A stretch of DNA of 64,000 nt, taken from Anolis carolinensis (taxonomy: Eukaryota). Location of the stretch: positions 155,698,897 through 155,762,896 of the forward strand of contig NC_085845.1 of the NCBI RefSeq assembly GCF_035594765.1, given 5' to 3'. A program made the translations under genes and the position numbers. Positions 19,401 through 64,000 of the stretch are shown piece by piece (position 1 is the first letter of the stretch; the number at the start of each line of letters is the position of its first letter). The notes beneath the pieces were generated by a model. The model was not told the DNA's origin and did not search any database. It was given only the letters and a program-made list of their open reading frames with translations.

Positions 19401-22400
19401 ATAGAATACAGTATTAGTTGGGCCTATTTTTAATAATAACTCAAAAACAATGAGAAAGTTGATTTCTTCAATATCTTCCAATCCCTATGGATGCTGGTTA
19501 ACTGAGAGTCTACTATATTTGGATTAAACGGGAGAAGGGGAGACTTCTTGTTATGATTGAGCCTCATGGCTCTGTTACTGACAGACGTGGGCGTAAGACT
19601 CCTCGAGAGTCAGATACTCTCGAGGAGCGAGAAAGAAAAAGACTGCGAGACATTTTTGCAGCACCATCTGACGAAGAGTCTTTTGAGGGGTTTACGGAGA
19701 GAATGGAGGAGGGGCTGGTTAGCTCGGAGGAGGATGAGATGGATTGGACTCGGGTAAGGGAGGAATTGGGTGCCACTGGTCATGATGGGATAGAAGATGA
19801 ATGGGGACCTTCAGGATTAGACCCATGGCTTAGCTGGAGGGATGGGACGGGATCCACAGCTGGAGATGCTGTGGGGCGTAGTCAGAGGTGTTCCAGCTCT
19901 GATGAGGAAAGTGATGAGGAAACGCCCGGGTTAAGGAGGACAGCTGACAGTGATGAGGATTTGTAACTGGCATAAAATGGGGCTTGGGAGCAATTGCAAA
20001 TTGCGTTGGGCAAGGTAATCTGGACGAACGCTTGGGATCTGTGTGGGACGCTTTCCTGAAGACTGGTGTGTTTTCCTGTGCTGAGACGTAAGTTGTTTTG
20101 GAATTCAGGGTCAGACGGCGGGAGGAATTGTGTGGGCATTTGTTTGTGCAAACCTGTGCTTACTCTTATTAGCTTGACCTTCCGTCGTCTTCTTGACGAA
20201 CGCCATCTCCTGTTTTGAAAACTCGGACTGAACTGACCACGGCTTGTCTTCCCCCCTTCTTGGACTTGGAATCTACAAACGTCTGCTTCTGGCTTTGAAC
20301 TACGGAAAGGAACTGGGTCTACTCTACTGCTACAATCCTTGGCTGATCTGTTCGTGTTGGAAATCCTGTCTGCTGTGTGTGTGGGAGCGACGCAAGTTAC
20401 TCTAAGCACAGTGTTGGCAGCAGAGAGGAATCTGCTGCCAATTAGTTGCATTCTTTTGTATCTTTTGTTCCTCGGCTTTTGTTTTGTTTATCCCCAGGCT
20501 GAAGCAAGCAGTTTGTTTTTACCCGGATTAAACTCCGGTTTAATCCGGTTTATCTTTTGAACGTTTTTCCTTGCCCCTTTTTGCTCCTAAAGGCTAATAC
20601 TGCCTGGCCCTTGTATTTTACGGGCATTTTTGAGTTCTGTAATCCAATAAACTCTGTTATCTTGAACCTTGTGGCGTTCTGTCCTTGACACTTCTTAAGG
20701 AAAGATACTGGACTACTCTGTCTAATATTTGGAAACTATCCTCAAAATTTTGTTGTTTATTTGTTCAGTCGCTTCTGGCTCTTTGTAACCTCATGGATCA
20801 GCCCACACCAGAGCTCCCTGTCGGCCATTGCCACCCCCAGCTCCTTTAAGGACAAGCCAGTCACTTCAAGGATACCATCCATCCATCTTGTCCTTGGTTG
20901 GCCCCTCTTCCTTTTTCCTTCCATTTTCCCCAGCATCATTATCTTCTCCAAGATTTCCTGTCTTCTCATTATGTGGCCAAAGTATTTCATCTTTGCCTCT
21001 AATATCCTTCCCTCCAGTGAGCAGTCGGGCATTATTTCCTGGAGTATGGACTGGTTTGATGTTCTTCCTCCAATAGTTCATTATTTTTAATAGTTACTAA
21101 ATTCAACCAAAACCTATATATATACCATTGCTCAGGAATTAAACTTTACACTTACAATGACACTACTGGGAAAAGTTTGTTCCATCAATTTCAATAAGCC
21201 TATTAATGACAAAACCTGGAACTAATGCAATGTCTAATAGATAAGATTTGAAAGAATGATCTGGTTAGGTCATGCTGGAAAATAAAATTGCAATTTTAGA
21301 GCAATAATCTGAAAGATTGTCTTAAGTATCTGTATATGCACCTGATCCTCCCCTCATCCCAGTTCTCTGCACAGAAGGGCAGCCCCTTATATCTCTTATT
21401 CTTGGAAATTTTTAACATCAGAAAACCAAATGCAAAAATATTAGGTAAAAACCAGTATTTCTGAATCAAGAAGCTCTGTTTGTATTAATGCAAGAAAAAA
21501 CAAGGAACATTTCCCAAGATAATGGATGCTATCTACATTCTTTCAGGGATTCTATATATATGTATACACAATAAATTAATTACTCCAACACACTCTTTTA
21601 ATAAATAGGCAGAGCAATCCTAGTTGCTATGCCCAACCTTCCCAACACCCAGACAGGTTCTGGGGCAGGGCAGCATTGGGCAACCTTCTTGTTTTTTCTT
21701 TATTGCATTGCTTGCAATAGGGGGCATTTAGATCAAACATAGGACAAGTTTAAACAATTTCCTATATTTAGAAATAATTTAAATCAGCTCTAGGGAAAGT
21801 GCAATGTTTTCTTACATTGCGATAAGGTCAGTGAACTCAATGACTTTGGATCCTCTTTCTTCTTCCCTGAAGAAGTGAAGGGCATGGATTTTCCCATGTT
21901 GACATGGAAACTGAAATGCAATCTCTTTATAGAGTTAAATGCAAAGCTCTGATAATCCGGACTGCGTCTCAAGCATCAAATTTCTGTGTGTTTTCCAACT
22001 TAGGGGTTACAGGGTTGTACAGTGGGCCTTTGATATCTTCTACGGATTGATTCTAGGAACCCCTGTCGATACCAAAATCCATAACTGCTCAAGTCCGATT
22101 GTATACAATGGCATAGTAAACTGGTGTCTCTTATATAAAATAACGAAATCAATATTAAGTTTTTGGAATTTTGGGAGGGGGGATGGGATATCTTCAAGCC
22201 ATGGATGGTTGAGTCTGTAGACATAGAATCTGTGGGTATGGAGGGTCAACTATACTGTAAAAGCAAAACAAAACATCAAAACACTGTTCCTTTTAATATA
22301 TTTCATTGATTAATTTAATTTTGCAGCCCTCTTAGCTCTAACATTTATAACCTTTTCACTATTTTCTAAATGGTTTTGATGAATTTTGATTGTTTAAAAT

Positions 22401-25400
22401 CCTGAGCTAACTTAAAAACCAATTTAGCAATTTCTTAAAACCACTATTTGAAGAAGGCAAATGAAAATATAGCTGTTTTCCTTCACCAGAATCTCAGGCA
22501 AAGCTTTCCATGGTTGAACTAAGCATAGTGAAAAACCTCACAATATTTTATTGTCTTTGTTTTTTATTCTGAAAAAGTAAACTGAAAGCATAAAATCTGT
22601 AAACCATAAGCAAAGAATGCAATAGTGTCACCATTACAAACCATTTTCTGAAATTCTTTGATCACAGTGGTATTTGCAGTGCTACCCCGACCTCTAAAGG
22701 AATTCAAGCAATATATCCTACAAAAATTATTTCCGGCTTCCTTATCTAATTAGAAGAGATATGGGGCACTTCAGTTTTTGCTCTTATGAAGGGATGCACT
22801 GCCTTAAAAAACAAACAAACCTGGAAATCACAGTTTGAGTTCACTTCCAACCGCAATATCTGCCATTTGGTGGCATTGCAGGCATTTGTGTATGTGTTGA
22901 GGAGCAGGGAATGCACAGCTTTGGCATGCCAAAGAATAGGCATTGTGTGAACTGCATATGGCCTATAGAGCAAATTTCTCCCACCTGCCATTCATAATAT
23001 ACTATAGTATTTGGTCAAATCTAATATCCAGTTACATACTCAGTTATTCTACTTCTTATTATCATTTGCTTCAAATACTTTCACATTAAGAATGGTAATA
23101 AACTGATCTCAAAAGGAAAAAAAAATACCATCTGATTCTGAAGCTGCTCGGATGATCAAATAACTGCTAGGCAATGGTTGTGTTATAGAGCCAACAGCTT
23201 CCCCTTTAGGACCCTGAAAGTAAAAACAAGAGTTTTACGTTGATTTTAATGCACTGATCTTCAAAGGTTTTATTTTTAATTAATTTAAAGCAACCAGTGA
23301 TCCTGGTGACATTGAGAACTCTGATTGCTCATTTATGTCGATGAAGAAAGTAAAAAGGGATGTTATCAAGAAAAAATGGATGATAACAAGAAGCCACCTG
23401 GGAAGAAGCCACTAATGTTGCCTGTACTTTAGATCCATGTAGTAACTCAAGAAACTGGGAAACAGTTAAGCTGTAGCAGAATCAGAATAAACTAGTTTGG
23501 AGAGTTGGCTCAAGCCCCCTTTCCCAAGAATTTCTTGTACAGTACATATTTCCAGGTAAGTATGGGCATGCAGAGCGTGAGCCATAACAAAGTGCACAGT
23601 AGAAAAACCACAACGTATCTGTGTAGGGTTCAGTTATGCCTGATTCATAATATGTAACAGCAATCCTAAAACTAGAGTATGATACACAATTCACTACAGT
23701 GTCTACATTGAACAGTCCAATATGATGCAAAAAGTGATATTATCTTTTACATCAAATAAAATCAATATGACATAATATTACTGTTCTGACAAAGAGCAAG
23801 TATCTGCAATGACAGTTATAAAGATCAGCAGTACAAGTCCTGCATGCTGAACTTATGCTGAATTTTAAGACTGATCCTAATTCTTATAGACCAATATCCC
23901 TAAGCAATGTGGACTACAAAATATTTACTAAAATATTAGCAAAAAGACTGAGAGATATAATACCGGATATAATTAATGAAGATCAATACGGTTTTGTAAA
24001 AAACAGGAAATTAGCAGACCCTATAAGGAATATTTTGAACATTTTGAACCATGCCACAGAAAAAAAATCTAAAGTACTTATATTAAAATTGGACTTTTGC
24101 AAGGCATTCGACTCAATAGATCACAAATATTTGAACAGACTCTGCGAGGAATGTAATATGGGGGGGAAAGTGTGCAAGGTAATAAAAGAACTATATAGTG
24201 AAAACAAAGCAACTATCTTGGTAAATGGGACACAAACCAGACAAATAAATATTAATAGAGGAACTAAACAAGGATGCCCCCTTTCCCCGGCCCTATTTTC
24301 ATTAGCCATTGAACCTTTAGCAAACTTAGTAAGGAATAACCCGGTCATTAAAGGCTATAAGATGGGCAAGGAAGACATTAAGATTAATTTATATGCTGAT
24401 GATGTTATGATAATTTTAGGGGAGGTGGAGGAATCACTACAATCACTACAAGAAGATGAAATACCTAGGAGTGGATATACCAAAAAAACATCAACAATAT
24501 AATACAAATGAATTATAATCACCTATGGAAAAATATAAGCAAACAAATTATTACATGGGGAAAGAAATTCCGAGACATATCTACAAGGCTAAAAATCTAT
24601 AAGATGAAGATCTTGCCCAAATTTTTATTCTTGTTCCAAACCCTCCCGGTGAATATTCCTACCAATTTGTTGAAGAAGTGGGATAACTCTATGAAACAAT
24701 GGGTAGTGGGAGGAAACAAAAATAGAATTGCCAACTTTTTATACTATAGTAAACAAGAAATGGGTGGTTGGGGAGCTCCCTCGTTGGGAATATACTACGA
24801 GGCAAGCCAGTTAGCGAGGCTATTAGAATTCGAATTGGAAGGGTCAAAAAAATGGGTGCAAACAGAAAAGGAAGCAAATAATTGGCAAAGGGGAACATTA
24901 TTGGGAGAGAGAATTGATAGAAAAGACTTAAAGAATTTAAAAGCGGGCCCTTGTTTTTCAATGTTGTTAATCTGGAAAAAATGGCAAAATAAATTACAAA
25001 TAAATAAAATTGACCCTTTCCCACTAGAAACATTGGAAAATAAGGACAAGACATTCACAAATCTAATTAGGGCACTGAAGGAAAACGGTTTCAAAAGGAT
25101 TGGGGACATCATGAATCCCAAAGGAGAAATACTAAAGTGGGATAAAATAAAAGATAAATGTGGTCAAGGGAACTGGATAGCATGGTTAGGTCTGTCCAGT
25201 AAAGCCCAGGCCATGAAAAGAAGAGAAGTTGTCGAAACTCCACTGGATAGAATAATTAAAAGGAAAATAGAAATAGATAAAGGAATAACTGGGCTATTGT
25301 ATGATGTACTAATCACATTAACTTACAATACAAAAATAACCATTATAGATAATTGGAAACAGGAAAAAAACTTCACTGAGAAATTAATTGGGACTTGGAT

Positions 25401-28400
25401 TGACAATATTCCTAAAATTAAGCATATAAGGATTAAAGAAACACAAAGGAAAATAATATCTAAATGGTATAGAACCCCACTCCAAGTAGCACATATAACG
25501 GGAAATACTTCAAATAAGTGTTGGCATAACTGTGGGGAAATAGGTACATTTTCCCACATGTGGTGGGACTGTAGAAAAATTCAGAACTTCTATAGAAAAA
25601 TAAGAAAAATAATGGAAGAAATAATAGGGAAAGAATTAATATGGGACAAAGCTAGATACATGTCTCTCACAGTAAAGGTAAGGGAAGATAATAATAACTG
25701 GACAGAGATTCTAAAATATATGACAGCCGCAATACAAGCCACGATAGCCCGAGGATGGAGGGATGATACAAAATGGAATGTAGAAACCTGGTGGACTTAT
25801 ATATCAGAATATATAATTAACGATTTCATCATTCAAAAGAAAAAAATTTATACAAATAGCCTAAAAGATCAAGACTGGTTAAGGAAATGGACTGTTCTAA
25901 TCGACAAAATAGACGGAGACGAAAGATACCGTACCTTGAACCAGGCGTTCCACATGATTAAACTGATGTATTGACAATTTTGAATGGCTGTTCCAGGGGG
26001 GTGGGGGGTATGGGGGGAGGGTGGGGGTGGAGGGTGATACATTTCTAAGAACTGTTTGAAATGTCATTTAAGAAATAGTTACCTTTGGAACAATGTATAC
26101 TGAAATAAGTTATGTATGGCAAAAAGAGTTAATTGTTAGGATGTATCAAAAAGCAATAAAATAATTTTAAAAAAAAGAATTTTAAGACTGTAGACACAGT
26201 CTTCTCCAATCTGATGCTCTCAAGATAGGTTGTACAGTGAACCCTATCATCACCAGAAAAACATGGTGGAAATTAAGTCTGGCTAGGGACAACAGGATTG
26301 TAGCTGAAAACAAATATAGGACAACAGATTGGGAACAGATGGGTTAATGGAAATCAAAGCAAAAAAAAGGGGAGGTGGAGAAGAAGGAAGAATTCATAAC
26401 AGAGGCACGGATAAAAAACAACAACTGTAGAGTTTTTGAGTTTACTAACAGCATGAATTAAAAAAGTCAAATTTTTGGCTTTTGTGGGCCTCAGATTATT
26501 ATTGTTTTGGCACACTGTCGATATTATTTTATTTTGGTCATGTGCTTAGGCTGGCTTCATTTTTTTCCATGTATGGTAATTTTCCACTTCAGTTTTTTGC
26601 TTACTTATGAGGTATGCTTATTTTAAATCTGATTACTCTCACAGCCACTTTGTAGATGAAGACATATTAAATTAAAATAAAAGGGCTAAAAATAATGGCT
26701 GGGACCCTTCAACTTCACACAGAAATTATAATAATGACCTGATGATGCCATCTTTGTTCAGGCCATGCCCCAACAGAAAGAGTTCCAAGGTGTTGGAAAT
26801 AGCAACCTTCTACAAGCCTCCTATACAAGTTATTTGTTATGTATATAACTAAGATTGCTTACTATATTGTATGTATATATTGGTATACAATTTTCCCTTA
26901 ACACTATGTTGTTTGAAGTTGTGGGAGGGATTACAGACCATGTGACCAGACCTGAGACTGTTCAGAGTGAGACTCCATTATAGAATCCGTTTGAATCAGA
27001 AGTCAGTTAGAAGTCAGTTAAGTCAGTTGATGTCAGTTAGAAAATGAGTCAGTATGCATTAGCAGTAATCTGTGGCCTAGTAGATTAAAGCCTTGTGACT
27101 TGAAGGTTGGGTTGCTGACCTGAAGGCTGCCAGGTTCGAATCCCACCCGGGGAGAGCGTGGATGAGCTCCCTCTATCAGCTCCAGTTCCATGCGGGGACA
27201 TAAGAGAAGCCTCCCACAAGGATGGTAAAAACATCCAAACATCCGGGTGTCCCCTGGGCAACGTCCTTGCAGACGGCCAATTCTTTCACACCAGAAGCAA
27301 CTCAGGTTGCTCCTGACACGAAAAAAAGCAGTACAGTTGAGTATAGCATAGTAGTCTGTTTGCATCAGTTGATGTATGAAGTCAGTTGAGTATAGTTGAG
27401 TATAGTACAGTATGCTGCAGTGAGTAGTCAGTTTATATTAAGTTAATGTTCAGTAATGTATTAGACCAGGGGTCCCCAAACTTTTAAAGCAGAGGGCCTG
27501 TCCACAATCCTTCAGACTGTGGAGGGGCTGAATTATCATTTGAAAAAAAAAAAACCCAAACAAATTCCTATGCACACTGCACATGTCTTATTTATAGTGC
27601 AAAACAACAACAACAACAATGAAAGAACAATACAATATTTAAAAAGGAAAACAATTGTAACCAACATAAACCTATCAGGATTTCAATGGGAAGTGTGGGC
27701 CTGCTTTTGGCCAATTAATTAGGATTGTTGCCGTTGTGTGCCTTCAAGTCATTTCAGACTTCGGGAGACCCTAAGTCTAAAATTATTTATTTATTCATTT
27801 ACTACATTTATTTATTACATTTATATCCCGCCCTTTTCACCCCAAAGGGGACTCAGAGCAGCTGTATGTACATACAATATATTATACTATTAGCATAGCA
27901 CAATATTAGCATTATATATTACTATATTGAACTATACCACTATACTGTAATATCATATGTAATATATAACATATAATTAATATTATTATATGGTATTATT
28001 ATTAGCATTATATTGTATAACATTATAATATTATCAATATTATATGTATATACAATTATTATATTATTAAAAATGATATAAAATATATTATAAAACTGAG
28101 GGCGGGGGCCAGGTAAATGATCTTGGAGGGCCGCATCCGGCCCCTGGGCCTTAGTTTGGGGACCCCTGTATTAGACTGAAAGGAGTATCAGTTAATATGA
28201 AACCAATAAGCAATGTACCTATATGCTAAATATATTAAGTTTGTAAGTAAATCAACCTTGTTAACTTTTTGGTCTCTCGAGAGCACGATATGAAAGCAAT
28301 ATATTTTATGGGAGAGTAGATATTTTTTGGACATCTGAAATAACGCTTTTGAAGATCTGCTATATATTTTATGCATTAGTATATTTTTGTCGTAACCATT

Positions 28401-31400
28401 CAAAGAGAGAACCTGGGATATCAGTGTTATGATTGAGCCTCATGGCTCTGTTACTGACAGACGTGGGCGTAAGACTCCTCGAGAGTCAGATACTCTCGAG
28501 GAGCGAGAGAGAAAAAGACTGCGAGACATATTTGCAGCACCATCTGACGAGGAGTCTTTCGAAGGGTTTACGGAGAGAATGGAGGAGGGGCTGGTTAGCT
28601 CAGAGGAGGATGAGATGGATTGGACTCGGGTAAGGGAGGAAGTGGGTGCCACTGGCCATGATGGGACAGAAGATGAATGGGGACCTTCAGGATTAGACCC
28701 ATGGTTTAGCTGGAGGGATGGGACGGGATCCACAGCTGGAGATGCTGTTGGGCGTAGTCAGAGGTGTTCCAGCTCTGACGAGGAAAGTGATGAGGAAACG
28801 CCCGGGTTAAGGAGGACAGCTGACAGTGATGAAGATTTGTAACTGGCATAAAATGGGGCTTGAGAGCAATTGCAAATTGCGTTGGGCAAGGTAATCTGGG
28901 CAAACGCTTGGGATCCGTGTGTGTGTGGGACGCTTCCCTGAAGACTTGTGTGCTTTCCTGTGCTGTGACGTAAGTTGATTGGAATCCAGGGTCAGACGGC
29001 GGGAGGGATTGTGTGGGCATTTGTTTGTGCAAACCTGTGCTTACTCTTATTAGCTTGACCTTCCGTCGTCTTCTTGACGGACGCCATCTCCTGCTTTGAG
29101 AACTCGGACTGAACTGACCACGGCTTGTCTTCCCCCCTTCTTGGACTTGGAAAAACTACAAACGTCTGCTTCTGGCTTTGATCTACGGAACGGAACTGGT
29201 CTACTCAACTGCTACAATCCTTGGCTGATTTACTCGTGTTGGAGATCCTGTCTGCTGTGTGTGTGGGGGAGCGACGCAAGTTACTCTAAGCACAGTGTTG
29301 GCAGCAGAGAGGAATCTGCTGCCAATTAGTTGCATTCTTTGTATCTTTTGTTCCTTGGCTTTCGTTTCGTTTATACCCAGGCTGAAGCAAGCAGTTTGTT
29401 TTTACCCGGATTAAACTCCGGTTTAATCCGGTTTATCTTTTGAACATTTACTTTTGCCCCTTTTTGCTCCTAAAGGCAAAAACTGCCTGGCCCTTGTGTT
29501 TTACGGGCATTTTTGAGTTCTGTAATCTAATAAACTCTGTTACTTTGAATCTTGTGGCGTTCTGTCCTTGACAGATTGCCCAACGCCCATAAAAAGTTTA
29601 TTGCAGCAATAAACCCGTCAGGAAGACGATGGATGAGTTAAGGGCCAAAGTAGACCAATTGCAAACGGCTTTTACCGTTATCCAAACAGCTCAGGCTGTG
29701 AAAGGACATGTTTTGACTCCTGAACGCTTTGACGGAACCAGGTGCAAGTTGCCAACCTTTTTGGCACAAGTGGAGCTTTATTTTTCTCAGCTCAGTGCTC
29801 ATGCTTTTCCTACAGACACTAGCAAGGTGGCCTTTATTTTGAGTTTGTTGACCGGTCCCGCAGGACAATGGGCCACTAATTTAATTTTGGGAAATGACCC
29901 AGTCAAGGACAATTTGAATAATTTCAAAAAGTTGTTAACTGATACTTTTGGGGATCCTCTCCGCACGGAGAACGCTGGGTGGGCTCTGTATCGGTTGAAA
30001 CAGGGAAAGGGGACTGTTTTGGATTACTTAAATAAGTTTAACCTGTATCGCCACCAGCTGGATTGGGGGGAAAATGCATTCATGCTTTTATTTACTGCCG
30101 GGTTAAGTGATATGCTCCAGGATGAATTAGCACGCTTGGAGCCGGCTGAAAGCTGGGACGCCTTAGTAGCTAAGGTGCTGCGTTTAGACGCAAGGTTCGA
30201 GGCTCGTAAACACTCAAAAGCAATGTGTGCGCCACCCATGCATGTAACCAGGGCACCTGTGGTGATGGGGGAAGAGCCCATGGAGCTTGGGGTCTTTAAA
30301 AAGCTGTCTACAGAGGAAAAGAGCCGTAGGAGGCAGCTGGGCTTGTGTTTGTACTGTGGGAATGCTGGGCATTTTGCCAAAAATTGTAATGTGAAACCTT
30401 CCCAGCTTTCGGGAAAAGGCCAGCCCTAGTGCGACGTGAGTCCAACGCACTAGGGCTCCTCAAGCAGTCAACTGAGGGGAGGAAGCATGTTTTCGTACCC
30501 ATTACATTATCTGTTGGGGGAAGGGAACTTGTTTCTACTTTGGCACTGCTGGACTCAGGGGCTACGGTCTCCTATGTAGATATTGAGTTTGCTAAGAAGC
30601 ATGGCATTCCTAGAGTACGCAAGGCATGCGACGTGTGGGTGGAAGGAGCAGATGGGAGACTGCTGGAGACTGGGGTGGTTAACCATGAAACCTCAGCAGT
30701 AACGTGGGAGGTGCAGGGAGTAACGGGAACGTTTGTGTGGGATATTACGAGCTTGCCTAGATATGATGTGATCCTGGGGATGGATTGGCTAGCTGTAGTA
30801 AACCCACATGTAGATTGGGCAACACGTAAAGTGATCTTAAAGAGGCAGGATTGTTGCACTCTAAATGTTACTCATTCTGATATGGAGGGAGTGCCTGCTG
30901 AGTATGGGGAGTTCTCTGATGTATTTTGTAAAAGAGAAGCGGACAAATTACCACCGCACAGGCCATATGATTGCGCCATCAAGTTGGCAGAAGGTGCGAA
31001 ACTGCCAGCAGGGAGGCTGTATGCCTTGACTGTACCGGAAAGGCAAGCTTTGCGGGAGTTTCTAGATGAAAATTTAGCCAAGGGGTTTATTCGCCCATCT
31101 AGTTCTCCAACTGCGGCACCGGTATTCTTTGTAGCCAAAAAGACTGGGGAACTTAGGTTGGTCTGCGATTATCGGATCCTAAACAAATACACCATTCGGA
31201 ATAGGTACCCGCTGCCTTTAATCTCGGAACTGTTATCAAGGGTGCAAGGGGCTAAGGTCTTTACCAAGCTTGACCTGCGGGGGGCCTATAACTTAATCCG
31301 TATACGGGAAGGGGATGAATGGAAGACGGCATTTAACACGTGTTTCGGATGCCACGAGTTCCGAGTCATGCCTTTTGGGCTTTGTAATGCTCCTGCGGTA

Positions 31401-34400
31401 TTCCAGAGGTTCATGAACGATGTGTTCAGGGACCTAATTGACCAATTTTTAGTGATTTATTTGGATGATATCTTGATTTTTTCTAAGGACGAGAAAGAAC
31501 ATCGTCAACATGTCAAGCAGGTTCTGCACCGACTGCGGGCTAATGGGCTTTTCGCCAAGGCTTCCAAGTGCGTCTTTCATGTGCCTGAAGTGGAGTTCCT
31601 AGGTCATGTAGTGTCAGGTAGGGAACTTAAAATGGACCCACATAAGGTTGACGCCGTCAACTCATGGCAGGAGCTAAAGACTAAGAAGGATGTACAAAGG
31701 TTCTTGGGTTTCGCTAATTACTACCGGGAGTTTATTCCGAATTTTGCAAAGCTCACGGTACCTTTGACGCAGCTTCTGCGCAAGAAACAGCCATTTGTGT
31801 GGGGGCGGGAAGCTCACGAGGCGTTTCTACAACTAAAGTCTAGTTTTCAATCGGACAACATACTAACCCATCCTGATGTTGACAGACCGTTCGTGGTAGA
31901 AGCGGACGCTTCTAGCTACGCGTTGGGGGCTGTATTGTCTCAGAAGGATTCCTCAGGGACCTTGCGTCCCTGTGGATTTTACTCGCGGCAACTAACACCC
32001 TTCGAGCAGAACTATACCATATGGGAGAAGGAGTTGTTGGCGATTAAGGTGGCGTTTGAGGTGTGGCGGCACTGGCTTGAAGGGGCACGGCACCAGATCG
32101 TGGTCAGATCTGATCACAAGAACTTAGAGCACTTGCAAACAGCAAAGAAGTTAAACCAGCGTCAAATCCGCTGGGCTTTGTTTTTCTCCAGGTTTAACTT
32201 CAAGGTGCAGTTCGTGGAGGGGAAGGCAAACTTGCGGGCCGATGCTTTATCCCGCAAGCCGGAATTTAAGACCAATGAGCAGGTAGTATGTCAGACCATC
32301 TTGCCTACTGCCTCTCTGTGTGTTGTAGATAATGAGCTTGGGTTACATGACCAGATCCTTGAGGCTCAGAAGGATGATGTGTGGACTCAGGAGCAACTGA
32401 TGCTGCTCTCTGCAGGTAACCGTACCATACTGCCGCATCTCCAGGATCAAGACGGGGTATTGGTGCGTAGGGGGCAGGTTTACGTACCAGTAGGGACCCT
32501 CAGGTTGGAGGTGATTAGAGCCCACCATGACGAACCCATGGCTGGGCACTTTGGCAGGTTCAAGACCGTACAGCTTATCACCAGGAGCTACTGGTGGCCA
32601 AAGATGCGGCAAGACATTCTGCGCTTTTGTGACAGCTGCGCCGTTTGTCAGCAGAGTAAGACGCCTGTTGGGCGCCCTAGAGGGTTGTTATCGTCTTTAC
32701 CTGTTCCGGAGAGGCCATGGCAAATCATTTCCATGGATTTTATTTCAGATTTGCCTAAGTCTGGGGGTTATACTTGTATTTGGGTGGTGGTGGATTTATT
32801 TAGTAAACTGGCTCATTTTATTCCTTGTTCAACCATTCCGGCGGCCCCTACGTTGGCCTTACTATTTACAAAGCACATCTATCGTTTGCACGGAGCACCC
32901 GAGGTGATTATTTCAGATAGGGCTCCGCAATTTGTGTCACGCTTTTGGAAACACTTCCATGAGTGTTTGGGGACTAAGTTAAACGTGTCTTCAGCTTTCC
33001 ATCCGCAAACGGATGGACAGTCGGAACGGGTTAATGGGCTCTTAGAGCAGTATCTGCGTTGTTTTTGTTTAGATCAACCCACGGCTTGGGTAAAGTGGTT
33101 ACCGGTGGCGGAATTTGCTTACAACAATGCGGTGCACACGTCTAGTCAGCATACGCCATTTGAGCTAACTTATGGTTTTCACCCACGGGGAGGTGTGGCG
33201 CCGTCGACCAATGTGGTCTCTTCGGACCCTGTGTACCGCTCTTCGGAAATGGCTGCATTGCATGATGTTGCCCGTCGCTTACTGTTGGAAGCTAAGGCAA
33301 CGCAGAAGACTCAGGCTGACCGCCACAGGCAGGCAGGGGAGGAGTTGGAAGAAGGGGATTTGGTGTGGTTATCTTCCAAACATATTAAACAGGCTGGGGG
33401 AAAGTTTGCGCCTCGGTATTTGGGTCCCTTTCCTATCGTTAAAAAGATTTCTTCTGTTGCGTTTCGTTTGCGTTTACCGTCTAGTTTAAAGGTCCATCCA
33501 GTCTTTCATCGTTCGCTGTTGAAACTTGATACCTCTAGTCGTCGTGGTGCTATAGCGGAGGGTATCACTGCCACTTCTCCGCCATCGGGGGAGGAGGCCT
33601 TTGTGAGAGGGGATAGTGTTATGATTGAGCCTCATGGCTCTGTTACTGACAGACGTGGGCGTAAGACTCCTCGAGAGTCAGATACTCTCGAGGAGCGAGA
33701 GAGAAAAAGACTGCGAGACATATTTGCAGCACCATCTGACGAGGAGTCTTTCGAAGGGTTTACGGAGAGAATGGAGGAGGGGCTGGTTAGCTCAGAGGAG
33801 GATGAGATGGATTGGACTCGGGTAAGGGAGGAAGTGGGTGCCACTGGCCATGATGGGACAGAAGATGAATGGGGACCTTCAGGATTAGACCCATGGTTTA
33901 GCTGGAGGGATGGGACGGGATCCACAGCTGGAGATGCTGTTGGGCGTAGTCAGAGGTGTTCCAGCTCTGACGAGGAAAGTGATGAGGAAACGCCCGGGTT
34001 AAGGAGGACAGCTGACAGTGATGAAGATTTGTAACTGGCATAAAATGGGGCTTGAGAGCAATTGCAAATTGCGTTGGGCAAGGTAATCTGGGCAAACGCT
34101 TGGGATCCGTGTGTGTGTGGGACGCTTCCCTGAAGACTTGTGTGCTTTCCTGTGCTGTGACGTAAGTTGATTGGAATCCAGGGTCAGACGGCGGGAGGGA
34201 TTGTGTGGGCATTTGTTTGTGCAAACCTGTGCTTACTCTTATTAGCTTGACCTTCCGTCGTCTTCTTGACGGACGCCATCTCCTGCTTTGAGAACTCGGA
34301 CTGAACTGACCACGGCTTGTCTTCCCCCCTTCTTGGACTTGGAAAAACTACAAACGTCTGCTTCTGGCTTTGATCTACGGAACGGAACTGGTCTACTCAA

Positions 34401-37400
34401 CTGCTACAATCCTTGGCTGATTTACTCGTGTTGGAGATCCTGTCTGCTGTGTGTGTGGGGGAGCGACGCAAGTTACTCTAAGCACAGTGTTGGCAGCAGA
34501 GAGGAATCTGCTGCCAATTAGTTGCATTCTTTGTATCTTTTGTTCCTTGGCTTTCGTTTCGTTTATACCCAGGCTGAAGCAAGCAGTTTGTTTTTACCCG
34601 GATTAAACTCCGGTTTAATCCGGTTTATCTTTTGAACATTTACTTTTGCCCCTTTTTGCTCCTAAAGGCAAAAACTGCCTGGCCCTTGTGTTTTACGGGC
34701 ATTTTTGAGTTCTGTAATCTAATAAACTCTGTTACTTTGAATCTTGTGGCGTTCTGTCCTTGACAATCAGTCTGAGAAGCCTACACTGCCTTGCATGAAT
34801 ATTAGTGGATATTTACTACTAAGGAGAAGATTTACTCAAGTGAGTTTTTAACTCTTCTCAGGAAGATCATACTTAACAAATAGGTTGTGATTATTCTAAA
34901 TAGTGTGGATGCCAATTAATCTCCAAAAAGGGTCACACTTCCAAATGGCTTTGAAGTTGCTAGTTTTCCAAAGGGTTACGATCTCTAACAAGGTCATGCC
35001 TTTCCAAAACAAGATGCTGTAGATCATGTTATTTAAATTATTGTTTTTATGTGTATTGTGCAGTCTAGAGTTATTTTGTATCGCACCTCTTTACACCAAA
35101 GGTTTAAAATTTAGTACAAATTATCATTCAACATTCATCCTTGATAGACCATGCAAATTGGACATTTCATACATAAAGTGAAAAAATGTCCCATTCTGAT
35201 GCTAAAACATTGACAGTGGAAGTATTTTCACACTTGCTGAAACAAAGAGGTTGTGTTAACCAGTGCTTTAAATTCATGTCCAACAGCTTTCTCCTGCAAG
35301 TTTCATTTGTTTCAACAGACTTCCAGACCTCTGGATAAGAGGAAGATACAATGCACCCACACAAGATGAGATTTTCCTCTTTCAATGTCCCCAGCTATCC
35401 AAAGCAGTATTGTTCAGGATACTAGGATTTGAGAAAATAAAGTAAGCTTAACAGAGGTGTAGCTCTGCTGGACTAATCTATGCCAAATGAAAACATTCTG
35501 AGATCATTAATATTTAAATGTGCAGAAAGGTTTAGCATGTCATCAGGGCAATGTTCTATTCAGCATTAAGGGTACATATTCACTTACCTTAACAGCCCAG
35601 ATAGATTGCTCCAAAGGATGGAAAAGTTTGAAACAAAATCCATCCTTTTTTGAAGGCCGCTCAATGAGTTCACATGCGTTCAAAAGTACTGTTCCTACCC
35701 ACTGGCCATTTTTAGGAGTTTTGTAAATAAGCAGTACTCCTGGTTTCAGCACGCACCAAAGTTTTGTCCAGCTTTTCAATGTACCACGAATCTTAACAGG
35801 AAAAAAGAAGATTTTAGTTTGCACTGCAATTCCTCTCCTCCTGAGCAGAGACCTGCCCTGAAAGTATACATAACCAGTTCAGTATTATAAAATTAAATTA
35901 AGATAGTTCCAGGTTTCTTTCAACTATCCAAATGTCATGGAGTTATCCATAACCAGAATATGTATATTGCACATTGTATATTGTTATTTGATAGACTAGT
36001 AAACTACTAAAAGATATCAAATGTAACATGCAGGGATTTTTTAATGAAATAAAATCATGCACAGTAACCCTATAAATATCTATCTACTCAGAAGTACAGA
36101 TACTTCTAGCCAAGTATAGGATTCCATTCCAAACTAGTACTGTGTGTTACATATGTAAATGGAGATATAATGCTCTTAAAGAGTCAATTGACAGTTTGGG
36201 TGTGGGATTGCAATGTGAACTGAATTCAGGTTAGGCTGATTTCCAATCAGCAATGAGGTTCACTTGCAAGCCACAAGCAAATCACTCTCCAGGGTTGTTG
36301 TGAGAAGGGTACAACTGTAACCCATTGATTAACAATGTTGTACATTAACAAACTCTCAGATTTTAATCCATTTCAGAAAATACAGATTTTGAGGTAACAA
36401 TATCTCAGGCATAATATTTTATTGATCAGCCTAAGGTATTTAATTTGCATTTGACCTGTGATAATCACTAACATTAAGCAGTGCTGAATTACAGTATAAT
36501 TCCCATAACTACAGTCGATACGTTCGTGAATTTTTGGTGGAAATGTAAAACTGCAGATAATAGCAAATCCAGAAGAAGCATACTATAGAATTTAACTGGA
36601 GGGCCTAAAAGATGTGTAGAAATGATAAGTGAAATCACAGGAACCGGTCCCATGGATACAAAGGTTATACTGCATTTAACACCCATGTTTGTTTTACCGT
36701 GTCTTCTTGATGGAACAATTTATATAATTCTAATTTTCATAAATGAAACATTCAAATCTTTATGCCCTCATATATAAAAAGAGTGTATGTGTGTTTGTTT
36801 TCAAGAAATAATCTGTTCAAAATACAGTAGAGTCTCACTTATCCAACACTCGCTTATCCAACGTTCTGGATTATCCAATACATTTTTGTAGTCAATGTTT
36901 TCAATATAACATGATATTTTTGTGCTAATTTTGTAAATACAGTAATTACAACATAACATTACTGCGTATTGAACTACTTTTTCTGTCAAATTTGTTGTAT
37001 AACATGATGTTTTGGTGCTTAATTTGTAAAATCATAACATATTTTGATGTTTAATAGGCTTTTTTCTTAATCTCTCCTTATTATCCAACATATTCGCTTA
37101 TCCAACGTTCTGCTGGCCTGTTTATGTTGGATAAGTGAGACTCTACTGTAGTTGTATATCCATAACCTCCAATTTTCTAATATTAGAGGAACATCTTGTA
37201 ATTCGCAACATATTACCGTATTTTTGCTTTATAAGACGCACCTGATGATAAGACGCACCTAGTTTTCAGAGGAGGAAAATGGGGAAAAATAATTTGAACT
37301 AAAAGATGACCTAGAACATTTTAATAAAATAACATCTGAGGGGGGAGAAGGGCACCCACCAGCGGTCCTGCTGCCCGCCCGTCCCGCGCGGAGAGGGCGC

Positions 37401-40400: not shown

Positions 40401-42207
40401 ACAGGTCTAATGTTTATATTCATATTGCTTCATTTCATTGAGGCAGACAAGGAGTTTTTAATTAATCCAAAAACAAGTGTTTTTATGGTACTTTGTATGT
40501 GCCTCTATTTGCATGTCTTTTGAAAATGAACTAATTTGCATAACAGAGTTCAAGATTATCAACTGAGCGCCACATGTACAAACAGAAACAAGACTTCCCT
40601 TGTTCACTATCTCCTTCAAGGAGAATGTCTCCACACTTAATATTTGAACAATTTCCTGTATATATTACAGATTTATAGATGCATTTTTCCATTTAAGGCA
40701 TTAATTGTATTCTATTTACCATGGAAGTGAATACAGTGTGATGCATGCGATGAAACTCCCCAGACACTCCTAAATTTAAAGGAAAATGTCTATTTTTTTT
40801 TTTTTTACTATTTCTTACTTGACTGACCAAACTGACCAAACGCCTGGCACAAATGCAACAGTTTCTTCCCCCTTAGAACCTCCATGCCCAAAACAACAAC
40901 AAGAGACCACAAACCAGTCAAAATGCCACAGAAAGTGACACATCACTACTTCTGGCATGCCAAAACATGGTGGTACAGCCTTATGTAAAGGATGCAGGGG
41001 GAATGGTTCCTGCCCACAGTTGTCCACCACAAACTTATAGCTGTGGCAGCATATGATTTTTAGTTGATTTGAGATAGGGTTTGATCTATTCTGCTTTCTG
41101 AGAGAGAATCCACACCATCCGCAAAGAACTCGCAAACAGAGACAAAGAACTGCTGCACCTCCATATCAACATCAGTCAAAAGATGAACACCCAGGACTGG
41201 GATAAAATAGACAGCCTCACCTACAAAAAAAATGGAGAAAGACATGGTTCTCCACACCAAGAGACAAAAACAAAAATTCAACAAATGCCGTAAGCAACAG
41301 CCAAAACCAGAACTGGCTAAGTCACGGACCATCATCAACCTGACTGACAGACAACTCACTGAAGAACAAGTATCCATTCTAGCAAAAGGAGGAAATTTTG
41401 CAGTCACCACCACCAGGATCCCAGTAGAAAACATCATTGCCAATGTTGAATCAGCAATTTACCGGCTACCTGAGGAAGAAGCGGAGGAGGTAAGAATGGA
41501 AACAGCAAGGATCCTGAGAAATGAAAAACTTCCCCCCAGCAACATAACGAGAAAAGAAAGACAGGCCATCAAAGATCTCAACTCAGATCCAGAAATCATC
41601 ATTCTCCCGGCTGACTAGGGGAATGCCACGGTAATCATGGAAATAGAACAATACAAAGAAAAAAATCAGACAACTTCTAGATCCCACAATTTACAAGAAA
41701 CTGAAACAAGACCCTACTAACAAAATCACCAGAAAAACGAACAATCTAATCAAGAACTCCATTAACTTTGACATACGCCAACAGCTGTGCAAATCAGAAG
41801 CCCTCCCACCCAGGCTTTACACACTCCCAAAAATCCACAAGGACTCCATCCCACTCAGACCCATTGTAAGTGCCATTGGATTGCCGACTTACAACCTGGC
41901 AAAATTTCTGGTTACACAGCTACAAACCCATATTGGGCTCACTGTGCACTATATCAAGGACTCAACACACTTCATAGAAAAGATCAGCAACCTCAAGCTA
42001 AGCACCAAGGACATCCTGATCAGCTTTGATGTGGTGTTCCTATTTACCAAGGACCCGGTAGCTGATACCCTCACACTAATCAAACAAAACTTCCCAGAAG
42101 ACATCACAGCCCTGTTTCACCATTGCCTCACCACTAGCTACTTTCAGTGGGACAATGGATTCTATGAACAGAAAGATGGAGTGGCCATGGGGAGCCCTCT
42201 CAACCCA

Positions 42208-42240
<33 letters not shown>

Positions 42241-45200
42241 TTATTCTTATATCCCACCCCATCTCCCCGAGGGGACTCGGGGCGGCTCACAACAATAATA
42301 AAAACAGTGACAAATTACACATTGTAAAATCAAACATGAAAAGCAGTCATACAATCAATACATACATCACATGTGAAAAACAAGGAGATAAAACAGTTCT
42401 AGGCCGAAATAGAGGGCTTCTGTAGCTTCGTGGCAGAAGTATTCAGCAAGGTATCAATAATCATGGCAGAACACTCTCTAATTAAATTAAATGGGCAGAC
42501 AAATCAACCCCCAAAAATTAGTCGTCGAAGGCCCTCTGGAAAAGCCAGGTTTTAAGGCTTTTTCTAAAGGCTAGGAGGGTGGGGACCTGTCTAATCTCCC
42601 TCGGGAGTGAGTTCCAGAGGCGGGGGGCCACAGCAGAGAAGGCCCTCTCTCTCGTCCCCACCAGCCGCAACTGCGAAGGTGGTGGGAGCGAGAGGAGGGC
42701 CTCCCCCGAAGAGCGAAGAGATCGTGCAGGTTCATAGGGGGAGATGCGGTCTCTAAGGTAGGTGGGTCCCAAACCGCAAATTTCTATATGGAACACTTTG
42801 AAAAACAAGCCCTAGAAACAGCACCAAAAAAGCCAACTGTTTGGTTCAGATACGTAGATGACACCTTCACAATTTGGAGCCATGGAGAGGAAGAACTCAG
42901 CAAGTTCCTGGACCACCTTAACAGCATCCACCCAAACATCCAATTCACCGTGGAAAAAGAAAAGGAAGGAAAAATGCCATTTCTAGATGTTCTGGTCATC
43001 CGCAAACCCAATCAACAATTGGGCCACACAGTTTACAGAAAACCTACACACACAGATAGATACCTTCATAAAAACTCCAATCTTCACCCAAGTCAAAAAA
43101 GAAGCAAAAAAGCCCTGACAGACCATGCACAAAGAATCTGCGAACCTCACCTCCTCCAAGGTGAACTAAACCACCTAAACTGGGCTCTACAGGCCAATGG
43201 ATACTCCACCACAGACATCAGAAGAGCTGAAAGGCCAAGAACAAGCCATGAGAGTCAAGACAAAGATCCACCCAGAGGAAAGGTGTTCTTACCATACATC
43301 AAGGGAACCACTGACCACATAGGCAAACTAATGAAGAAGCACAACCTACAAACTATCTACAGACCCACAAAGAAAATCCAACAAATGCTACGGTCAGCGA
43401 AAGACAAGAGGGATCCTCTCTCCTCTGTAGGAGTCTACCGGATACCATGCAGCTGTGGGCAAGTATACATAGGGACCACCAAACGCAGCGCACAAACACG
43501 AGTCAAAGTAGCAGACTAATTCAACCAGAGAAATCAGCACTTGATGAACCAACCTGGACACAGTATATTATCTGAGAACACAGAAATGCTTGACCACTCC
43601 AACAACTATCATGTCAGACTACACAGAGAAGCCATTGAAATTCACAAACATGTGGACAACTTCAACAGAAAGGAGGAAACCATGAAAATGAACAAAATCT
43701 GGCTACCAGTATTAAAAAAACTCAAAAAAATCAGAACAGTAAATAAGAAGCAACACTCTGAGACATGGGAACTAGGGGCAGTTAACAAAGAATGCCCCCA
43801 GGCAGAAAGTAGCTAGATGTAGCCATTCAATACAAATTAGGGTGATTAACTGGAACATTTAAGCTGGCTTCCAACTGACAAGAGTTCTTCCCTCACCCTG
43901 GACTTCCCACAGATATATATAAACTCTCCTTGCTCAGTTTTTCCATACCTCACAACCTCTGAGGATGCCTGCCATAAATGTGGGCGAAACGTCAGGAGAG
44001 AATACTTCTGGAATATGGCCACGCAGCCCGAAAGACATACAACAACCCTGCTTTCTGATTATTGAGAGTGCCTGTTTTTCCCATATCCCACTCCAACATA
44101 ACAAACCATCCCATTGAGAATGGTCCCTTGACTGTGGTTGGAGAGATAGGAAATTTCATTTTCATTAATTCAACTGCATGCACTGACTATAGTTCAAATC
44201 CTTGGTTTGAATAGTCTAAACATGTTTTTTTTACATGTACTTCCCACAGGCTGGAAAAAAACTGGATGATAATAATAGAACTAATAGAGCCTCATAACTC
44301 TTCTGGCAGCCAGTTATTCCTTACTAGCTGATACTGTAACCAAGTTACTAGGAATTTCTCAGTAAGCATTTGCTTACTAAAAATATACTTTGGATGAGTT
44401 ACAAGGCATTTGTTTTCCCGGATATCAAACCACCAACTTGACTGACAAGAGGAGCTTAATTAAGATAGTCAACTAAACCTTCCTGCTAAATAAAAGGTCA
44501 ATATTTTTTCTCAAAACCATTCTCATTGTAGTTTTCAAAAAAGACGCTACTTGCTCTTTGATACAAAACACCAGTTTAAGAAGTATTGGCTGAAAACTGT
44601 ACATGTGAAAGGGATCTAGGAGTCTTAGCAGACCACAAGCTAAACTGTGTAATGTGGTAGCTGAAAAGGGTCAGTATGATTCTAGGCTGCATCAGAAGGA
44701 GTATTCTAGATTGAGGAAAGTAGTAGTCACACTCTATTCTGCTTTGGTCAGACCTTACTCAGAATACTATGTCCAGTTTTGAGCACCACACTTTAAGCAG
44801 ATATTGACAAGCTAGAACGTGTCCAGAAAAGAACCACCAAAATGGTCAAAAGTCTGGCAGCTAAGCCCTATGAGGATCAGCTTAGGGAGCTGAATATGTT
44901 TAGCTTGGAGAAGAGAAGGCTGAGAGGGGACATGATTGCTATGTTTAAATATTTGAAAGGATGTCATATTGAGGACAAAGCCAGCTTTTTTCTGTTCACT
45001 TCAAAGACTAGGACATGGAGCAATGGACTCAAGTTGCAGGAAAAGAGATTTCACGTAAACATTTGGAAGAACTTCCTAATGATCAGAGCTGTTTGACATT
45101 AGACTATGCTGCCTTGGAGTGGGGTCTCCTTCTCTAAAGGCTGGAAGCCCTCCAATTCTATGATTCTATGAGGAATTTGAGACCAGAGGCTGTATTTCAT

Positions 45201-49212: not shown

Positions 49213-51544
49213 CTTTATTTATATCCCCCCACCATCTCCCCACGGGGACTCGGGGCGGCTTACATGGGGCAGTGGCCCAAACAACATAAGAACAAAATAT
49301 AAGCAACACAATACAATCACAATATAAAAAGATAAAACAATAATACAATATATCAATATAAACAACAATACAAGATAACAGACGTTAACCATACATTCTG
49401 GCTACTTCTGAACTGGAAAGTATGGTTAATATGGTTAATATGAACCAACCATAGCTTTCAAATATTGGCTTATGTGGAAGCCATCAAACATAGTTCCCAC
49501 CTGATATGTAACAGGTAGCTATGATGAATTAGGAGCTTCTTGACTTAAGACTGCTGTTCACACCAGAGGCTAATATAATCTAGTCATTAATTATCATTTT
49601 TGGATTTAGCTGTAATAGCAGACTATGGTTAATTGCTGCTTCCTGAATATGTGAAGCAGGGAAGCAGAGTGGATGAGTGCATGGAGGTCATTAAATATCC
49701 TGGTTTATAAAGTCAGAATCTGATCTTCCAAATGTGATCTTTTTATTTGCACTGGATCTAATCCATCCCATCTGTTATCATTTGATGATACAAGTGCTCT
49801 TCAGCAATATTTTAAAAATAAAAATGCATATTTATATTTGTATTTAGGAAACCAATAAAATGTGTTTACAATAATTTCCAAGAACATAAAGAAGTACAAT
49901 TAACAGATTTGATGTTATGAAACATACATCTTCGTGGTCATTCAAATTAGAGAAGACCTATTACATTAATGGGATTTGCTTAAGCATGCATTCACTATTC
50001 AAATTTAATTCATTGAGTTTACTCTAGTAGGACTACCAACAAGTTGTTGCCAGGACAAACTGCTTGAAAATCAAATGTTTAATATTACTACTATGAATAC
50101 TAACACTAAGTTTCTCATTTTTTGTGTAACAAAATTTCCAATACATTTACACTTAAGTTATGTTCTGGGAAACATAATAGCAATGAAAGAAAACAAAGAA
50201 ATATATTAAACATTATTCAGAAATTCTGAGCTCTGAAAATGATTGCGAATTTCATATACAGTATATATTCCTCATGTGTAAGTTTTGAAATTTTGGTCAA
50301 AACATTGATCCCTAAAACCTGAGGTGACCTATTCTAAGGGTCTATGTAAATACTGTACTTTAACTCTTATTCATAAATAAACCATCTCCTTCTGTGAATA
50401 GCGTGGCAAAACGCAAGAACTTAGTCTGCTCTGGGAAAAACTGGGTAAAAAAAATAACAGTGATCGTCAGGGATGGTGGACCCTCAGATAACACTGGCCC
50501 TTTCCCCTCTTCATGGAATGACCCTTTTGCTGATTCATGCGTCCCATCAAAAAAAGGTAATTTTGGCCCAGAAACTTGTCCTCGACAAATACATGAAGTC
50601 GACATATACATGTATGTATGGCAGGCATACCAGACAATTTATGAGCTTAAATGCAATCCTCTGACTTAATACAGTCCTCCAGAATATGTGTTCAGCCCTT
50701 TATAGATATCCGGCATGCTAAGTAAATCCAAAGAAAATGATGGGAATGAATAACAATCGAATTCCAGTGAGTGATTTACTAGAAATAGCCTGAAATATAA
50801 AATAATGCCATATCATCTCCCCATCTTTTACATAAAGGGATTTTATTAAGGCAAGTTAGAAATTCTGAGGGTAACAGTACTAAATTGTTGACAGTTTCTT
50901 CCTGTTGAAACCTAAACTACACATACATATGCAATAACCTATACCAGGGGTCCCCAAACTTTTTAAGCCGAGGGCCGGTCTACAATCCTTCAGACTGTTG
51001 AGGGGCCGGATTATCATTTGAAAAAAAAAAAAAACAAATTCCAATGCACACTGTACATGTCCTATTTGTAGTGCAAAAACAACAACAACAACAACAACAA
51101 CAACGAAAGAACAATACAATATTTAAAAGTAAAAACAATTTTAACCAACATACATTTATCAGGATTTCACTGGGAAGTGTGCTTCTGCTTCTGGCCAATG
51201 AGATAGTCAAGTTAATTAGGGTTGTTGTTGTTGTTGTTGTTGTTGTGTACCTTCAAGTCATTTCAGACTTTGGGCAAGCCTAAGTCTAAAATGTATTTAT
51301 TTATTATTTATTTATTTACTACATTTGTATCACACCCTTCTCACCCCAAAGGGGACTCAGAGTGGCTTACAAATTATATAACTTTTATAACTGTTTATTG
51401 ATGTTATGTTTTTATTGATGCGACATTGTTTTATTGCCGATCTTGTTTTATTGTTTTATTGTTGTTATTGTATTGTTGTCGGGCATGGCCCATTGTAAGC
51501 CGCTCCGAGTCCCTCGGGGGAGATGGGCGGGATATAAAAATAAA

Positions 51545-51596
<52 letters not shown>

Positions 51597-63354: not shown

Positions 63355-64000
63355 TGACCAATTTCAAACCTCCCATTTTTAGGCAAGGTTTTGGAGCGAA
63401 TAGTGGCCTCTCAACTCCAGGGATCCTTGGATGACACCGATTATCTTGACCCATTCCAGTCTGGCTTCAGGCCTGGTCATGGGACTGAGACGGTTTTGGT
63501 CGCCTTGGTGGATGACCTCCGTAGAGAGCTTAACAGGGGGAGTGTGTCCCTGTTCGTTCTCTTAGACATCTCAGCGGCTTTCGATACCATCGACCATGGT
63601 ATCCTTCTGGGACAGCTCTCCGGGATGGGCCTTGGGGGTACTGCTCTGCAGTGGCTCCAGTCCTTCCTGGAGGGCCGATCCCAGATGGTGAAGCTGGGGG
63701 GACACTTGCTCAGACCCCTGGCCTTTGACCTATGGGGTCCCGCAAGGTTCTATTCTTTCCCCCATGCTTTTCAATATCTACATGAAACCACTGGGCGAGG
63801 TCATCCGGAGTTTTGGAGTTTGGTGCCATCTCTACGCAGATGACACTCAACTCCACTACTCCTTTCCACCTACTTCCAAGGAAGCCCCTCGGACCCTAGA
63901 CCAGCGTCTGGCCACTGTAATGGGCTGGATGAGGGCCAACAAGTTGAAGCTTAATCCTGATAAGACAGAGGTCCTCCAGGTCAGTCGTTCGACTGATCGG
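63355..64000 (+). mobile_element. L2 LINE RT fragment, running off the window
   Basis: DPFQSGFRPGHGTET, LLDISAAFDTIDH, then after a frameshift GVPQGS and YADDTQL. Confidence 0.92.

Follow-up and report, generated by a model that had tools for sequence, protein, structure and literature searches.

What is an intact open reading frame (ORF) doing in a solitary long terminal repeat (LTR)? The window analyzed here, a 64,000-nt stretch of the Anolis carolinensis genome, holds a solo LTR at 19549..20690 (1142 bp, TG...CA ends, 5-bp target duplication CTTCT) and, at 28425-34765, a full element with two identical LTRs and the target duplication ATCAG. Both lie on the + strand, as do all their features given below. 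In the solo LTR, positions 19553..19966 encode 137 amino acids followed by a stop. The first-pass annotation took this ORF to be a U3-encoded, functional protein segment under purifying selection. Our preferred reading, to which we give a probability of about 0.58, is that the ORF is a selected C-terminal tail of integrase encoded in the 3' U3. Its host-like motif likely binds the integrase-binding domain (IBD) of LEDGF/p75 or HRP2, which would tether integration to H3K36-methylated, transcribed chromatin.

The full element, a Gypsy (Ty3/gypsy) retrotransposon, supplies the context. A gag frame (29593..30429, first ATG at 29629) encodes a Retrotrans_gag/Ty3 capsid and a zinc knuckle and overlaps by 40 nt with a pol frame of 1214 aa from stop to stop (30390..34034). 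Pol is ordered PR, RT, RNase H, integrase zinc finger, integrase core and Tf2-type SH3. It then passes in frame through the polypurine tract (PPT, 33605..33616) and stops 418 nt into the 3' LTR (33617..34765, with AATAAA at 34721-34726). The coding copy of the tail is thus pol residues 1078-1214 (33621..34034). It is predicted to be disordered, 39 of its 137 residues are D or E, and no Pfam family (0) matches it. Pfam also finds no chromodomain in pol of this family (no PF00385 in P0001, P0005 or P0010), and the 4.0-kb internal region of the full element has no env-sized frame. In retroelements, both LTRs derive their U3 from the 3' end of the RNA, which is why a solo LTR carries the ORF; the 5' LTR (28425..29573, 1149 bp, same sequence as the 3' LTR) has it at 28429-28842.

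Other repeats share the window. In the R region of the LTRs, an almost perfect inverted repeat (29402-29435, 20522-20555) folds into a 12-bp hairpin. An AT-rich repeat bounded by short inverted repeats occurs twice (27462-28177 and 50940-51893; 83-97% alike in blocks), and we take it to resemble a non-autonomous DNA transposon. Broken fragments of non-LTR reverse transcriptases occur at 23822-25974, 41647-43519 and 63358-63843 (RVT_1 in three of six frames scanned).

Whether the ORF lies within U3 depends on where the transcript starts. No complement of a tRNA 3' end was seen at the primer binding site (29576..29586). The site is instead the exact complement of LTR 455-465 (28879..28889), the self-priming arrangement of the Tf1/sushi type. 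The two sites pair in both the MFE and the centroid fold. Among the 13 elements for which an LTR end was located, 11 had an exact 11-nt self-priming complement at LTR 453-456, and the complement was present in all six subfamily elements of a second comparison. Self-priming is known for the Tf1/Sushi group, as PMC6317226 describes. We infer a transcript 5' end at LTR 455, about 30 nt downstream of a TATA-like CATAAAA (28847..28853) that directly follows the ORF stop and may serve as its promoter element. This would place the U3/R boundary at LTR 455 and give a U3 of LTR 1-454, so the label "U3-encoded" is supported to the same degree. The family resembles Tf1/sushi chromoviruses in its separate, overlapping gag and pol frames, PR-RT-RH-IN order, Ty3-type capsid, Tf2-type SH3, self-priming site and 5-bp target duplication. 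It differs in lacking a chromodomain and in carrying a 137-aa acidic tail in U3. In a quick tree of 189 integrase columns, built without named references, it sits on a long branch.

An ORF in U3 could also be a separate accessory gene in the style of retroviral U3 genes, read from the ATG at LTR position 5 and expressible from solo LTRs. That ATG is kept in 6/6 subfamily copies, and in some database models the tail is preceded by unrelated sequence in the same protein (P0006, P0008, P0011, P0012). However, the ATG overlaps the terminal TGTTATG, the integrase attachment end; codons 1-16 are unconstrained (omega 0.47, no difference from 1); and transcription would begin only after the ORF. Moreover, the tail was joined in frame to pol in all eight full-length pol frames compared, and inserted copies mutate neutrally (see below). 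Compared with accessory genes of the nef/sag type, the ORF is in frame with pol and has no unit of its own. We regard an independent gene as very improbable.

The substitutions between the two window copies of the ORF were exactly as first counted. Positions 19553-19966 and 28429-28842 differ by 13 substitutions in 414 nt, ten of them synonymous and three non-synonymous (L72V, I80T, L93F), with no indel. With synonymous sites making up 22-30%, the probability of at least ten synonymous changes in 13 is 4.6e-5 (kappa 1) to 6.2e-4 (kappa 8). Four synonymous changes (codons 34, 41, 44 and 45) fall in a 15-residue block and leave its protein sequence unchanged. The LTRs differ in length (1142 vs 1149 bp), and all 13 gap columns (six runs) lie beyond LTR position 418. 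For the window pair alone this contrast is weak (0/6 gap runs in 36% of the LTR, P ~0.07). It became clear across six 5' LTRs, where the 420 columns of the ORF hold two gap starts and the 854 non-coding columns hold 34 (P ~1e-4). One of the two ORF gaps is an in-frame 6 nt; the other is a 2-nt deletion private to one 5' LTR whose 3' LTR is intact. Both window variants are young subfamilies. For each of them, 40/40 scored genome matches were 100% identical, from 1076 and 1432 candidates; for the solo LTR, the identity holds over the first 442 nt. With no fewer than 40 identical matches in the genome for either variant, the solo/full pair compares two active lineages.

Protein relatives of the tail, at 61-88% identity, pointed to further subfamilies. 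Among 74 ORF haplotypes, seven were seen in at least two independent insertions, and six of these were used to estimate omega; the 67 haplotypes seen once and H4, which is one base from H3, were left out. Across the six subfamily copies, down to 62% protein identity, ML omega was 0.221 (MGK, kappa 3.1, 2dlnL 75 vs omega 1), and 2dlnL was 92 under MG and 77 under GY. NG86 gave 0.08-0.35 (kappa 1) and 0.11-0.52 (kappa 4). On these six copies, the codon-alignment check proposed with the original claim returned an omega of 0.22, well below 1. Frame +1 is the sole frame without stops in all six copies. The four out-of-register frames gave ratios of 1.5-3.4; the in-register antisense frame gave 0.37 but contains stops. 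Variable columns at codon positions 1, 2 and 3 numbered 35, 20 and 74. With ML omega at 0.19-0.22 and +1 as the only open frame, the tail is a functional protein segment and not accidental read-through, as had been argued from the window pair.

We then asked on which copies selection acts. Protein searches favor intact frames, so we used a non-coding query to retrieve 30 copies of an older subfamily; two of the 30 loci were excluded as second LTRs of one element. The ORF was intact in 25 of the 28 independent copies. Private changes (14 synonymous, 42 non-synonymous, 2 stops) gave omega 0.86-1.20 and shared changes (7 synonymous, 12 non-synonymous) 0.49-0.69, a difference between classes that is not significant (P 0.37). 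Because private changes are neutral, selection is placed on the replicating lineages and not on inserted copies. The claim of purifying selection on the ORF thus stands for the replicating lineages, through the 3' U3 as part of pol. It does not stand for the solo LTR itself, which is only a passive copy, given that post-insertion changes are neutral.

How strong is this constraint relative to the rest of pol? After exclusion of 13 of 20 fetched elements with a frame outside 1200-1230 aa, eight full pol frames gave omega values of 0.035-0.045 for RT, RNase H and integrase core, 0.076 for SH3 and 0.36 for the tail. Constraint on the tail is moderate, roughly ten times weaker than on RT or the integrase core. 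Between distant subfamilies, dS in the tail (0.33) reached only some half of the value for RT and integrase core (0.63-0.77; full elements L111-L122 plus the window element), which suggests overlapping promoter constraint or LTR exchange. This could be pressed further: the whole pattern might reflect mutation bias or constraint on the U3 promoter as DNA, and the halved dS does suggest some nucleotide constraint or LTR exchange. But the 35/20/74 distribution with only frame +1 open speaks for protein selection, omega is low even with kappa fitted, and mutation bias alone is not the source of the signal because private changes give omega near 1. Such a reading is already contradicted by the frame, omega and private-change data, and we consider it scarcely credible. 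The purifying selection on the tail is real, though in itself nothing unusual for an extension of pol.

The distinctive feature of the tail is the motif, not the U3 read-through. Codons 17-47 have an omega of 0.077 (2dlnL 47), against 0.257 for codons 48-139, a remainder that is also constrained and includes W-containing blocks the tether model leaves unexplained. In the constrained block, FEGF follows a predicted helix and an acidic linker of CK2 type. Together, these make up a predicted JPO2/CDCA7L-like LEDGF IBD-binding (TND-interacting) motif at 33687..33761, with its copy in the solo LTR at 19619..19693 (tail residues 23-47, four silent changes relative to the full element). The first-pass annotation cited this motif, in its 15-residue block, without identifying it. 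A single-chain model predicts the tail to be disordered (mean pLDDT 57.5), with a single helix at 23-35 (pLDDT ~80 at residues 21-30) and anchors L31, I/L34 and F35. Then follow the eight-residue linker AAPSDEES, with CK2-type S39-D-E-E (T instead in two of five subfamily copies), and F44-E-G-F47. The helix and F35, P38, D40, E41, S43, F44, E45, G46 and F47 are invariant in 5/5 aligned subfamily copies, and FEGF is unchanged in 6/6. The motif is embedded in predicted disorder and is better conserved than the sequence around it.

Prior work has defined the TND-interacting motif (TIM) as an obligate helix, an acidic linker of 8-16 aa that is phosphorylated by CK2, and an optional FxGF (PMC9987994). 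According to that review, no known partner of LEDGF or HRP2 can do without FxGF, and this part is specific to pockets of these two proteins. The anole motif is like the IBD-binding motifs of JPO2/CDCA7L, KMT2A, IWS1 and POGZ (6EMO, 5YI9, 6EMQ, 6EMR, 6EMP) in a helix that ends in a hydrophobic-F pair, an eight-residue acidic CK2-type linker, FxGF and disordered surroundings. The sole PDB match of the tail was JPO2 motif 1 on the LEDGF IBD (6EMO; residues 29-48, 12/20 identical) at E 1.6, a value not significant alone; the resemblance had been noticed before the PDB search. The lizard genes identified through their zinc finger as probably CDCA7L-like and CDCA7-like hold three such motifs. The tail scored 61, 44 and 52 against them, values reached by 0, 13 and 1 of 20,000 shuffles in a test run after the motif had already been noticed. 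The score of 61 was against the CDCA7L-like M1 (L200); the best score among 101 post-SH3 tails of related integrases was 39. The host genome also has PSIP1 with a conserved IBD that matches solved structures. A PSIP1/LEDGF copy that lacks introns and has its IBD interrupted by a stop (L161:1501-1803; G000:C2:143718346) is a processed pseudogene.

The motif could have been captured from a host gene or have arisen by convergence. The linker serine is encoded by TCT in the tail, whereas the CDCA7L-like gene of the lizard uses AGT, and the likeness to JPO2 is lower in older subfamilies; for these reasons convergence is favored over capture. No similarity of the tail to CDCA7L extends beyond 18 residues, which together with the serine codons disfavors capture from that gene. 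Unlike host IBD-binding motifs, the anole motif, a predicted binder, sits on the integrase of an autonomous retrotransposon, inside an LTR. Among transposon-derived proteins, POGZ, which is a domesticated pogo transposase, comes closest as a precedent.

Another young Gypsy family of this genome (L165-L194, L238, L239; G000) shows that U3 read-through is not unique to this one. It has a chromodomain, self-priming and the same GDSV-M junction, and it reads 92-97 aa into the 3' U3 at a ratio of 0.52, a moderate constraint; eight of 30 loci, with tails frameshifted or missing, were excluded. Its tail holds only DEEENLGF, without the full motif, and a basic C-terminal SRRSARI block. A selected U3 tail thus does not need a LEDGF-type motif. 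This lends something to the view that the anole tail, too, is kept for generic properties such as nuclear localization (via the basic patches RRGRK and RKRLR), acidity or solubility, the likeness to JPO2 being coincidence; the basic helix is within the constrained block, and most of the tail is constrained. Coincidence fits poorly with three of the four tail phenylalanines falling exactly on motif positions, with 0/20,000 shuffles reaching the CDCA7L M1 score and with only 65 of 100,000 shuffled tails containing [ED]x[ED]xFxGF. Nor would acidity alone fix F, P, G and F. We consider purely generic retention quite unlikely.

Related integrases place the motif in context. The named protein relatives of the tail are all from Anolis carolinensis, and among 150 representatives listed only P0003 and P0008 cover the tail, which is weak evidence for its restriction. 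The ESM Atlas gave no usable match for the tail, and for P0032 only chromodomain clusters under 0.9. In 148 related integrase C-termini, the SH3 end motif was found in 133, and FxGF follows SH3 in four of these 133, two of them convincing. A chromodomain-like signature occurs in 54 of the 101 with at least 60 aa behind SH3, and the anole motif occupies its position. Two of the four with FxGF, P0032 and P0116, have a chromodomain (PF00385) and then F-acidic-FxGF, twice in P0032; they form their own clade, apart from the anole family, in a quick, poorly resolved tree. Both show apparent further read-through past a purine-rich stretch. In plant CRM elements, pol runs into the 3' LTR with a targeting module behind the PPT (PMC3605345 and PMC6317226). 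The anole element has this arrangement in architecture only: as in CRM with the CR motif, a presumed targeting module lies past the PPT and replaces the classic chromodomain. It differs in clade and host, and the CR motif is tied to centromeres. Membership of the CRM clade is not claimed, the host being a lizard.

On the best reading of these data, the motif mimics host partners, and a LEDGF/HRP2 tether stands in for the missing chromodomain. The tail would stay on mature integrase, CK2 would phosphorylate the linker serine or threonine, and the helix-acidic-FxGF motif would bind the IBD of LEDGF/p75 or HRP2. The PWWP domains of these proteins would then bring the intasome to H3K36me2/3 chromatin and so target integration. 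LEDGF and HRP2 are described as readers of such chromatin in PMC9987994. Cleavage at a protease site could, however, separate the tail from integrase, which would count against the model. The predicted host factor is the same as in lentiviral integrase-LEDGF tethering, and so is the predicted destination, active genes. HIV-1 integrase uses a structurally prearranged LEDGF-binding site, whereas host partners use an unstructured motif (PMC10854676), and the anole element would differ from HIV-1 in using a host-type linear motif. Like Ty5-Sir4, Ty1-AC40 and MLV-BET, it would rely on a short C-terminal motif, with a different partner and chromatin target. Tethers of this kind are often phospho-regulated and host-mimicking, and they direct integration.

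The motif might instead be a true TIM that does not serve site choice. It could act in chromatin retention, integrase protection, elongation-factor co-option or competition with host partners, or it could bind another TND protein; TIMs bind several TND proteins, according to PMC9987994. Anole population data that pool all Gypsy families fit simulations without preferential insertion by recombination rate (PMC7561263), which speaks against the tether model and is consistent with such a role. Against it, the FxGF part, reported in PMC9987994 to be specific to LEDGF and HRP2, is invariant across subfamilies, and the motif sits on integrase at the chromodomain position. We judge a non-targeting role unlikely, though deserving of some weight. 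No strong target sequence was found in 37 young insertion flanks (mean GC 0.39). The share of hits outside contigs C1-C6, counted by eye (~37/428 vs 4/150 in the chromodomain family), was rejected as insertion evidence because LTRs of older copies were compared with internal parts of full elements. Contigs presumed to be RNA (four sets) cover 30/30 bins; start, end, strand and level are not readable from them, and no evidence was drawn.

LEDGF is the textbook integration cofactor of lentiviruses, gripped there by a folded surface. If the tether model is right, LEDGF/HRP2 tethering extends beyond lentiviruses, and a non-infectious retrotransposon that imitates a linear motif of its host would have reached gene bodies by another, independent route. 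It would also be a clear example of a chromodomain being replaced by motif mimicry. A broader proposal, which we hold tentatively and at somewhat short of even odds, is that reptile Gypsy elements gained host-type IBD-binding motifs at least twice, in P0032/P0116 after a chromodomain and before the PPT, and in the anole U3 with no chromodomain. They would have converged on the CDCA7L motif and would use these motifs to enter transcribed chromatin, with KMT2A, JPO2 and IWS1 as rivals for the pocket. In the open-access literature searched, no retrotransposon integrase is described as having an IBD-binding motif for LEDGF or a TIM; subscription papers, Repbase notes and supplements may bear on this. 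The string "transpos" has 0 occurrences in the review PMC9987994. Within integrase tethering, the likely mimicry of a LEDGF motif would be new. The family is very active, with well over a thousand LTR copies in one genome, often identical. As these many young copies sit beside a similarly built chromodomain family, the targeting prediction can be checked from existing annotation.

The tail also turns up in unusual settings. In the database gene models P0012, P0006, P0008 and P0011, it is fused to LINE fragments or to a model of glucosidase II alpha; these may be annotation artefacts or exonised solo LTRs. In a rearranged copy, probably L127, the U3 frame is joined in frame to the RT thumb, giving an open frame of 804 aa.
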